Shown piece by piece: positions 16,792 through 19,254 of a stretch of DNA of 64,000 nt. Both the position numbers and the translations under genes were made by a program. A model generated the notes under the pieces. The model ran no database searches, was not told where the DNA came from, and saw nothing but the letters and a program-made list of their open reading frames with translations. Numbering within the stretch: position 1 is the first letter of the stretch; every line of letters starts with the position of its first letter. The DNA lies in NCBI GenBank assembly GCA_039545335.1, contig BCIN01000001.1:1224604-1288603 (forward strand). Reading direction: 5' to 3'. The DNA is from Kondoa subrosea. Lineage: Eukaryota.

Positions 16792-17022
16792 GGTAGTAGC
16801 TGATAAGGGTATTGTGCGAGAGGTATAGCGAGTCTATCGGACGCCCATCTTTTGAGATGTAAATGCAGGTGCGAAGTCAACCCCTGATGAAATCACGAAA
16901 TCAATGTGTTTCGCAGATTGACGCGACGACAATCTGGCAGTAACGTAAAATGCACATGTATTTCATTTGTATTTCGCACAAGGCTAGACTCTTTCCCTCT
17001 TGATCGCAAAGACAATGTCCGA

Positions 17023-18254
17023 TCAATAATGAAGCTGTAAGCATGGTCAATAAGCGAGGTCAGGCTGAATACTCTGGCGCCTACATCTTGTTCTGGCCAT
17101 TGAATGTCCTGGAAGTTGATCAGCATCTGCTTGACCATAGATAAGTGAAGTCACTCACCCTCTTCTCGTCTGCTTCGTCTTCGTCGGCCTCTTCGTCGAA
17201 CTTCCAAAGCTTTCTCTTGCCCTGTTGTCTTTCCGATGACCTACAAGCCGACGTCAGGCACGTTCTCATACATCAACATTACTTACCAGTCAATGGTATC
17301 GGGAATGACTACAAGCAAAGCGTAGTGATCAAGAGCCTGCTGATGTGTGTCCTTCTTAGGCGCATCATCGTCATTGAAATCTTCAGGGCCAGGTAGCTGT
17401 TTGCTTTCTGAACGAAAGCAAGCATAGATATGAGCGAACGATGTCCTGATTAGAGAGGCTTATAACATACTGTTGCCCATCGGTGTTCCAACTGGTGTAC
17501 CAGGAGCATTAGCTCTGGCATAATCCATCTTCCTTCCTGGTTTCAACGTTGAGAGATACTTGCCGCGCTCGTTCTGAAGCCATGTTAGACAAGACTATAT
17601 CTCATTTGGTAAGGTAGCTCGACTCACTAGCCAAACAGCATCGGATGAATTTGAATCGACCAAGAAGCTGTCGCCTGTTATGCGAAATTGCTCTCGTTCC
17701 TTCTCAAACCAGTAGACAAGTTCGACATTATGGTTTGCTCGGACTTGTTCAGCTTTAGGTGATCTATATGAAGACTATATTAGCTATTAATTCAAACAAG
17801 AGGATGCAGCATACCTGCTGTCTGTACCGATAAGAATAGCATAGCGACGAGCATGCGACATGAAGAGTAGATCCTATCTTCCGAGTTTAGCTTAACATTC
17901 ATTACAACACTCAAAGAGCCCGGAACGTACAGCATGCCCAACCATTCTCACTTTGGGTTTGCCTTCGGATATTGTAGCTAGAGCCATAGGAAACTGTGTC
18001 GACCTTGGATCTATCGGAAGGACATTTCTTTCAAGGCGATGTCCGGACACTGCTCATCGCTATCGCTTACCTGTCGGAATGAGGACAGCAGAGATCAGTA
18101 CGAGATCATATGGTACAAGGTAGGGGCTTGCCTGGAGAGTGGAAATGGCTCAGATCCGTTCGAAGCTTTTCAACCCTTTGAAATCTCGTAAGTCATGCAT
18201 TGCGGGTCTCAGCATTACTCTGCTGTACCATGTTGGCTCTATAGTCGGAGCCAT
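17023..18254 (-). CDS. Pyridoxamine 5'-phosphate oxidase-like FMN-binding protein (Pyridox_oxase_2 / Alr4036-type)
   Basis: Hand-spliced MAPTIEPTWVEKL...MALATISEGKPKVRMV...GTDSRSPKAEQVRANHNVELVYWFEKEREQFRITG...YALLVVIPDTIDW...WPEQDLHY*. No single ORF in the track represents it. Confidence 0.78.
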
Positions 18255-18648
18255 GATGTTGGTGCACAAGTCAAGAGCAAGGGCAAGCTGCTTGACCGTC
18301 GAGAGCAAATCGCAACGAATCCGATGTTCAGGCGGTGTCCTGACTTTGGTAAGGGCGAGGGCAGATGCTACAATCATGTGTTCTGGCAACTCTAGGTACA
18401 AGCGCGTGATATTTACAGCTCTCTCCGACGAGATATATGTAATGCCATAGGTTGGTACTCCGCTCTCTAACCGAACCGTATGCGGCTTGACTGTGGGCTT
18501 GCAAGCGCGTTATGCAGCTGCGTATTTGCTGCAAAAGAAGACCTGAATCGCCAATACGGAGTGAAAAAGATATAATAGACATCAACGAGACTTACGAAGC
18601 GACGCAAGGCGGACTTTCACCAGGAAAGCAATGACAGCTTCATCTTCA

Positions 18649-19254
18649 TTACGAGTTCTTGATGGCGTACTCCAGCAGATCACGCATCTCTTTCAACTGA
18701 ATCTCTTCCAGCTTCCGTTTTTGAGCTGGATCATTCGCAGATCCTGCCTTTTCTACTGAATCGACAAAAGCTTTAGCTTGTTTGGTAGAACCATGAGTTG
18801 ATAGAATGACGGGGTGGGAGATCCGGCTGAGCCACCATTTACTGCGCAACAGTTCTGACTATCGATGATTGTCTCTGATGTTTCTCTCGAAGGAGCTTAC
18901 GAATTCCACTTCATCCGCAAATCAAGATATGAGAAGTAGTGAGATCAAAAGCACGCACGAAATCGCCCTCCCGTCTATGCAAGATAGCATGCCACAAGTT
19001 CGAAGTTTGATCTGAATCGTTTGCTTGAGCCAACTCATGACAGTTATGGATATCGTCATTCAGGAGATGTAAGCCTTGATACGAGGAGTCTGATACGCGA
19101 ACAAGAACGGGGCAAGATTCAGCTGACCAGCTTTGACATTGCTTGATTTCTCTAAGGACTGGATTTGAGCGGTCAAGGAAGGATCATAGATTTTCTTGGG
19201 CACCAGAGAAGGTAAGGGACTGCGCGAGAGCAGCTGTTCCTTGAGCTCTTGCAT
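18649..19254 (-). CDS. Conserved hypothetical protein with HAILHRREGDFWNSKWW motif
   Basis: Four exons give ...AGLHLLNDDIHNCHELAQ...NLWHAILHRREGDF-WNS-KWWLSRISHP..., including an 8-nt exon at 18901-18908. Confidence 0.75.

Follow-up and report, generated by a model that had tools for sequence, protein, structure and literature searches.

This analysis concerns a 121-nucleotide (nt) intervening sequence in a PNPOx-like gene (PF12766, Pyridox_oxase_2) of Kondoa subrosea. The gene lies on the minus strand of a 64,000-nt stretch of contig BCIN01000001.1 (positions 1,224,604 to 1,288,603), which as a whole is referred to here as the window and provides all coordinates unless another contig is named. 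It starts with an ATG at 18254-18252 and is interrupted between its exons 2 and 3 from 18131 to 18011. On balance, we favor the view that these 121 nt are two complete, directly abutting U2-type introns, a GC-AG intron of 61 nt and a GT-AG intron of 60 nt, which would enclose an exon of zero length and would be removed in two separate reactions. As judged from their sequence, the signals of the two units appear to be complementary: unit A, the upstream one, combines a weak donor with a strong branch signal, while in unit B the donor is strong and the branch signal weak.

Unit A (18071-18131, 64% C+T) reads GCAAGC...CCGACAG and unit B (18011-18070, 57% A+G) reads GTAAGC...CCGATAG, and with 61 and 60 nt they fill the interruption exactly. 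They meet at 18071/18070 in the composite site CAG/GTAAGC (18065-18073), in which a complete 3' splice site of the form YAG is fused to a complete 5' splice site of the form GTRAGY, the putative 'exon' in between consisting of zero nucleotides. Upstream, the 44-nt exon 2 (18132-18175) ends in CACTCTCCAG (...CCAG) in phase 1 and contributes the first base of an Asp codon; downstream, the 80-nt exon 3 (17931-18010) begins with ATCCAAGG. Excision of all 121 nt leads to an in-frame ...HSP-D-PRSTQF..., and reading on from exon 2 without splicing leads to a TGA after nine codons. If unit B alone is retained, a stop follows after three added codons, and if unit A alone is retained, it follows after nine. 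Because each of the half-spliced forms has a premature stop, both units must be removed. A hidden microexon beginning at 18070 was also considered and was rejected, as its frame runs into a TAG after three codons.

The outer boundaries of the interruption are fixed by a transcript of a close relative. A word-index search with one exon yielded a single relative (one match among 10 candidates), the 226-residue protein P0001, which is 94% identical over the exon and carries precomputed assignments to PF12766 and PF01243; the same kind of search with P0001 as the query returned only P0001 itself among 90 candidates. P0001 is coded as one unbroken frame at positions 436-1113 of a metagenome contig of 1175 nt, L001. 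Aligned to the minus strand of the window, L001 falls into nine collinear blocks, from which all eight of the gene's intervening sequences are missing; it is therefore taken to represent spliced RNA of a close relative. A scan of metagenomes for orthologous genomic DNA returned this spliced contig only, and a weak bacterial match from a scan of prokaryote genomes (L002, 33% identity, E 1e-4) was dismissed as irrelevant. In L001, exon 2 (458-502, aligned to 18176-18132) is joined to exon 3 as CCAG/ATCC with zero residual bases; in the relative's transcript, the two flanking exons thus follow each other cleanly. Among canonical boundary pairs, only GC...AG yields this joint, the sole alternative shifted by one G being GG...TA, and the ends fixed by the transcript (GCAAGC...ATAG) are those of a U2-type GC-AG intron. 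When the eight inferred introns are removed from the window, the resulting coding sequence agrees with P0001 at 211 of 226 positions. A sequence-only reading of this stretch had named a transcription start downstream of 18131 as a refutation of its view; this is not indicated, since L001 carries exons 1 and 2 together with the start codon.

To rank the splice sites, position weight matrices were built from introns of the window itself. A heuristic search, which asked for a GT donor, a CTRAY motif and an in-frame stop within the intron and for a frame that is open on either side of it, gave 156 candidates, and the only excess of these unrestricted candidates over a flat background was found at 44-63 nt. 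The reference set consists of 45 non-redundant candidates chosen at 44-70 nt, which range from 45 to 69 nt with a median of 52; the seven other introns of the PNPOx-like gene measure 53, 57, 51, 54, 63, 46 and 50 nt. Taken singly, units A and B are both close to these local sizes. Compared to the 45 reference introns, the internal donor at 18070 (score 10.97) ranks at the 98th percentile, the internal acceptor at 18071 (6.0) at the 33rd and the terminal acceptor at 18011 (6.5) at the 51st. The outer GC donor at 18131 scores 3.3, below all 45, a low value that comes from the C at position +2; the remaining positions, which are preceded by CAG, follow the consensus, and without counting +2 the score is 9.6. 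Each element of the interruption that the sequence-only reading had placed in this minus-strand gene could be recovered at its position, and its further statements were likewise borne out: the interruption has twice the usual length (121 nt, compared to 46-63 nt in the gene and a median of 52 nt in the window), an acceptor at its midpoint (18071/18070) is fused directly to a strong donor, and full excision restores HSP-D in frame while read-through meets the TGA.

The branch signals divide the interruption in a similar fashion. Across the 121 nt, the only strict CTRAY motif is CTGAT, which is part of the candidate branch site TACTGAT (18094-18100) in unit A and is also the commonest branch motif among the heuristic introns of the window (17 of 45). 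Its branch A is located 24 nt upstream of the internal CAG, and the stretch between them is free of AG. Among the heuristic introns, 33 of 45 have as their 3' splice site the first AG that follows the branch A by 5 nt or more; splicing via CTGAT would therefore be expected to end at the internal CAG. The terminal AG lies 84 nt from the same A and is preceded by six further AGs. A strict CTRAY motif is lacking in unit B, where a motif search identified two candidates with one mismatch at 18029-18046, CGGAC (in 18046-18040) and TTGAA (in 18035-18029), in which the A is positioned 31 and 20 nt, respectively, before the 3' splice site. Two of the seven other introns of the gene, introns 1 and 3, both supported by the transcript, also lack a strict motif, and the terminal acceptor depends on the weak branch of unit B under every model. 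Taken together, the site scores and branch motifs imply that removal in a single step must pair the two weakest signals of the interruption across the two strongest.

Based on these signals, the two units would be removed by two ordinary intron-definition reactions whose order is free. If unit A were spliced first, exon 2 (...CAG) would be joined to GTAAGC, by which the same strong 5' splice site would be recreated and could then be paired with the terminal acceptor. If unit B were spliced first, unit A would remain as a normal 61-nt intron adjoining exon 3. Either order, as well as a single step between the GC donor and the terminal acceptor, would yield an identical mRNA (...HSP-D-PRS...).

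To estimate how often such a site is to be expected by chance, we trained a first-order Markov model on the intron interiors of the window, generated 10 Mb of sequence from it and counted fused acceptors and donors that are preceded by a branch motif at a distance of 8-45 nt; rates per position were converted to rates per 121-nt intron by means of the 34 eligible positions that leave both halves with at least 44 nt. When the minimum scores of real introns were required, the expectation was 1.9e-5 per position or 6.6e-4 per intron, at the lower-quartile scores it was 6e-6 or 2.0e-4, and at the observed scores 1e-7 or 3.4e-6. As a coincidence within one genome, the composite site is thus very unlikely. 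For the pattern YAGGTRAGY, the window has 12 matches as compared to 2.83 expected, and 12 matches were reached in none of 100 shuffles; such an excess is to be expected if real exon-intron borders make up most of the matches. A scan of the entire window for abutting pairs revealed 19 YAG/GT sites exceeding both score minima, among them five distinct sites with flanking units, the composite site described here included. At three of the other four (49167, 61738 and 52595) the upstream 'unit' is located within at least 33 open codons and is for this reason considered an ordinary exon, and these sites were rejected as abutting introns. Another candidate for abutting units without an obvious exon explanation is the site 29473 (29520-29395, minus strand), which is weak, with scores of 5.3 for the outer donor and 2.0 for the internal acceptor.

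Several points weigh against a removal in two steps. One-step and two-step removal lead to the same mature mRNA, which cannot tell them apart; the two-step mechanism, along with any use of the internal sites in vivo and the order of such use, is thus only inferred. The branch of unit B is weak and a competing AAG is present 17 nt before the end of the unit (AAAG ending at 18028); as unit B has no consensus branch motif, its autonomy is less clear than that of unit A. The matrices are derived from 45 heuristic introns that are not validated by RNA and were preselected by length, GT donor and CTRAY motif. Finally, the case was drawn from a very large scan, in which rare coincidences are to be expected somewhere, and on statistics alone it may be such a rare chance configuration. 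The main rival is a single 121-nt GC-AG intron which is spliced from the donor at 18131 to the acceptor at 18011 in one reaction, the internal CAG/GTAAGC and CTGAT being unused or rarely used and present either by chance or as relics of a two-intron state. Such an intron fully accounts for the mature junction, and its donor corresponds to the consensus at all positions but +2; the lack of a consensus branch motif in unit B and the size of the scan also speak in its favor. Moreover, a comparable complex sequence of Lipomyces starkeyi is reported to be removed in either one reaction or two (PMC7138796). We nevertheless consider a one-step intron less likely than two abutting ones. It would have to combine the weakest donor with the weakest branch and pass over what lies between them: a donor of the 98th percentile, an acceptor and a branch of consensus sequence. 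Moreover, an internal site of this kind is expected by chance only 3.4e-6 to 6.6e-4 times per intron. No RNA structure was predicted that would bridge the ends of the interruption, loop out the internal site or mask it; the minimum free energy of -33.1 kcal/mol is close to that of shuffled sequences (-31.7 ± 3.6 kcal/mol, z -0.39). In addition, an unused internal donor that does harm should have been weakened by selection in preference to the outer one.

Two further explanations concern the purpose and the origin of the internal sites. They might chiefly serve to generate unproductive isoforms, the retention of unit A or unit B leading to a premature stop as part of a regulatory or quality-control switch. 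Both half-spliced forms indeed stop early, and the single weak signal in each unit could make its removal rate-limiting; the only transcript contig recovered from the relative, however, is fully spliced, and neither the sequence, the predicted structure nor an Rfam search hinted at a regulatory element. The latter search, which covered 16800-18900, gave no match at E <= 1 and thus no small RNA borne by the intron. We regard a switch of this kind as improbable. Even less credence is given to the idea that both units once flanked a microexon that has been eroded to zero length. A complete loss of the exon would formally leave the abutting arrangement, and evolutionary exon loss accompanied by complex fungal introns is on record (PMC6616335). 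On the other hand, the transcript of the close relative has no extra bases at the junction, the protein of a more distant relative (P0005, see below) continues across the site with exactly the same number of residues, and of the 29 more distant family members in the alignment, 28 have equal or fewer residues at this position. The sequence-only reading had offered a 'microexon eroded to nothing' as one option and had suggested that orthologs be checked for a residual one; neither P0005 nor L001 has any, and this option is not supported.

The relatives were identified by an exhaustive profile-free search with P0001, which returned 190 proteins at E <= 1e-3 and six at E <= 1e-10. P0001 was aligned with 30 sequences whose match reached the N-terminal region, taken from the 150 matches that were listed out of the 190; in the resulting alignment of 31 sequences, only P0020 is longer than P0001 at the junction, by two residues. 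A search for shorter proteins additionally revealed P0005 (76 residues) and P0152 (59 residues), each located on a contig of 72,184 nt that belongs to a more distant relative, with 73-80% identity at the protein level. Due to the size of this contig and because its open reading frames break off where introns are expected, we infer that it is genomic DNA and that both frames reside on the same contig. P0005 is unbroken from the equivalent of exon 2 into that of exon 3 (...SPDPKSTQF...) and has neither an intervening sequence nor extra codons at this position. This continuity argues against a lost microexon and indicates that the double unit is lineage-specific. As far as the sequences go, a gain in the lineage of the window and a precise loss in the relative would be equally compatible with this pattern.

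We also compared the two units with each other and with their surroundings. A tandem duplication of one intron was rejected, as units A and B are no more alike than the 990 pairs of window introns (fractions of pairs scoring as high were 0.19 for global alignment, 0.26 for local alignment and 0.24 for the last 20 nt). The possibility that the 3' part of unit A was copied from the end of exon 2 was likewise dismissed as not significant, the local score of 19 being matched or exceeded in fractions of 0.08 (2000 shuffles), 0.11 (45 introns) and 0.07 (own-exon control) of the respective nulls. Finally, the units do not qualify as an introner-like repeat; their best matches to other introns of the window (32 and 26) are inside the best-match distribution of the 45 introns, which has a median of about 26.

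The surrounding window looks fungal, with about 46% G+C and numerous short introns. The match to PF12766 is provided by the translation of the exon at 17598-17774 (35.2 bits, gathering cut-off 26, E 2e-08), and the other four of the five exon translations scanned against Pfam gave nothing over threshold. Exon 1 (18229-18254) includes the start codon and is part of the spliced coding sequence that corresponds to P0001. Intron 1 (18176-18228, 53 nt) is absent from L001 although its donor (GTACAG) is poor, its acceptor is AAG and a strict CTRAY branch motif is lacking. Downstream of exon 3, exons 4-9 and introns of 57, 51, 54, 63, 46 and 50 nt occupy 17082-17930, as derived from the PF12766 exon and the alignment with L001, with some uncertainty at the 3' end. 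Past the residues ...PEQD (17108-16890, minus strand), the frame of the window stays open for about 60 more codons while the protein of the relative ends three residues on; this discrepancy could be due to a different C-terminus or to a further, unrecognised intron starting with GTAGGC. The lengths of four consecutive introns (57, 51, 54 and 63 nt; 17930-17408, minus strand) are all multiples of three, each intron containing in-frame stops, and the same holds true for unit B with its 60 nt; four such introns in a row are probably a coincidence, with a chance of about 1%.

Differences from the relatives were observed at other positions of the gene as well. At the site of intron 4 (17814-17764), the open reading frames of the more distant relative are continuous (...GTDARSPK...) and thus intronless, as seen by comparing P0005, P0152 and P0153. 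The intron of the relative near intron 3 (17930-17874) starts after codons for Asp-Leu-Leu, which in the window are preceded by the intron; this amounts to a shift of 9 nt in the same phase, and the introns of both begin with GTACG. The differences at introns 3 and 4 could have arisen by intron sliding or by independent gain and loss. The N-terminal residues of P0005 resemble a translation of the equivalent of intron 1. The alignment of L001 also extends beyond the PNPOx-like gene; its first block corresponds to the last ~45 codons and the stop of the upstream neighbour gene (18777-18650), located on the same molecule as the spliced PNPOx-like gene, and the whole span of L001 (1-1175) aligns within 18777-17082 on the minus strand. 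This two-gene molecule could represent a read-through or bicistronic-type transcript, overlapping untranslated regions or a join during assembly.

Splicing by way of zero-nucleotide exons has been described in long introns of Drosophila and mammals, and GC-AG introns form a minority of roughly 1% in fungi. The outer donor of the interruption, a GC followed by AAGC and preceded by CAG, resembles that of other U2-type GC-AG introns; unlike here, ordinary introns of this type do not include a complete internal acceptor and donor. The closest parallel in a fungus is BOT1 of the basidiomycete yeast Cryptococcus neoformans, in which an annotated 375-nt intron consists of introns of 210 and 165 nt with a zero-nucleotide exon between them (Burke et al., bioRxiv 10.1101/224170). 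That case, proven by profiling of junctions, branches and 3' ends (bioRxiv 10.1101/224170), is the one demonstration of such splicing in a fungus. As in BOT1, a fungal intron that looks single would be made up of two introns which meet at a juxtaposed acceptor and donor, the 'pivot point', and the mRNA would retain nothing of this site; in contrast to BOT1, each of the units described here measures only about 60 nt, the first one has a GC donor and the arrangement is deduced from sequence. The motif at the joint is also reminiscent of the polypyrimidine-YAG/GTAAGT of metazoan ratchet points, such as those described for Ubx and other Drosophila genes (bioRxiv 10.1101/006163), which likewise leave a 5' splice site at the joint after the first step. 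According to this source, however, ratchet points subdivide very long introns, whereas the entire sequence here comprises 121 nt. Furthermore, the internal donor of the PNPOx-like gene is already preceded by CAG in the precursor and needs no regeneration, and unit B could therefore equally go first.

Among complex intervening sequences of fungi, 'abutting U2 introns excised by recursive splicing' are listed as a class, and intron definition is described as a pairing of the nearest sites, by which the smallest intron possible is removed (PMC6616335). With the stwintrons of Pezizomycotina and Lipomyces (PMC6616335, PMC7138796, PMC5587772), the interruption shares two short U2-type units of about 50-70 nt and a presumed removal by consecutive reactions under intron definition. 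As described there, stwintrons are obligatorily spliced from the inside out, whereas the units here abut and appear independent, with no element interrupted; by this very criterion of an interrupted element, recursive splicing is explicitly kept apart from stwintrons in PMC5587772 and is also separated in PMC6616335. Readings as a stwintron in the strict sense ([D1,2], [A2,3] and similar) were accordingly rejected, as the donors and acceptors are intact in the precursor and no shift by one base gives a split element. In the literature searched, no description of two abutting introns of about 60 nt in a filamentous fungus was found.

If the two-step reading of the 121 nt is true, the PNPOx-like gene provides an unusually small case of an arrangement that has already been described. 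It is conceivable, though we put this forward with some reserve, that it is the smallest recursive-splicing unit so far, that removal in two steps is its main route, and that zero-length exons can originate and be maintained under intron definition alone, perhaps via the gain of an intron beside an existing one. The complementary strengths of the signals would then point to two-step removal as the main rather than a side route. If, on the other hand, the internal sites are unused, the interruption would be a long GC-AG intron of the ordinary kind that contains a decoy. If they are used, annotation hides two introns under one, and intron counts, length distributions and inferences on gain and loss would be off by one at such loci. 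The gene would represent a second fungal example of zero-nucleotide-exon splicing, with units far smaller than those of the C. neoformans case, and would support the view that fungal splice sites are simply paired with their nearest compatible partners. It would also provide a compact substrate on which the successive reading of physically overlapping 3' and 5' splice sites, the tolerance of a weak GC donor and the origin of a double intron at a site that lacks it in a relative might be studied. Zero-length exons, finally, would be shown not to be a device for very long introns.

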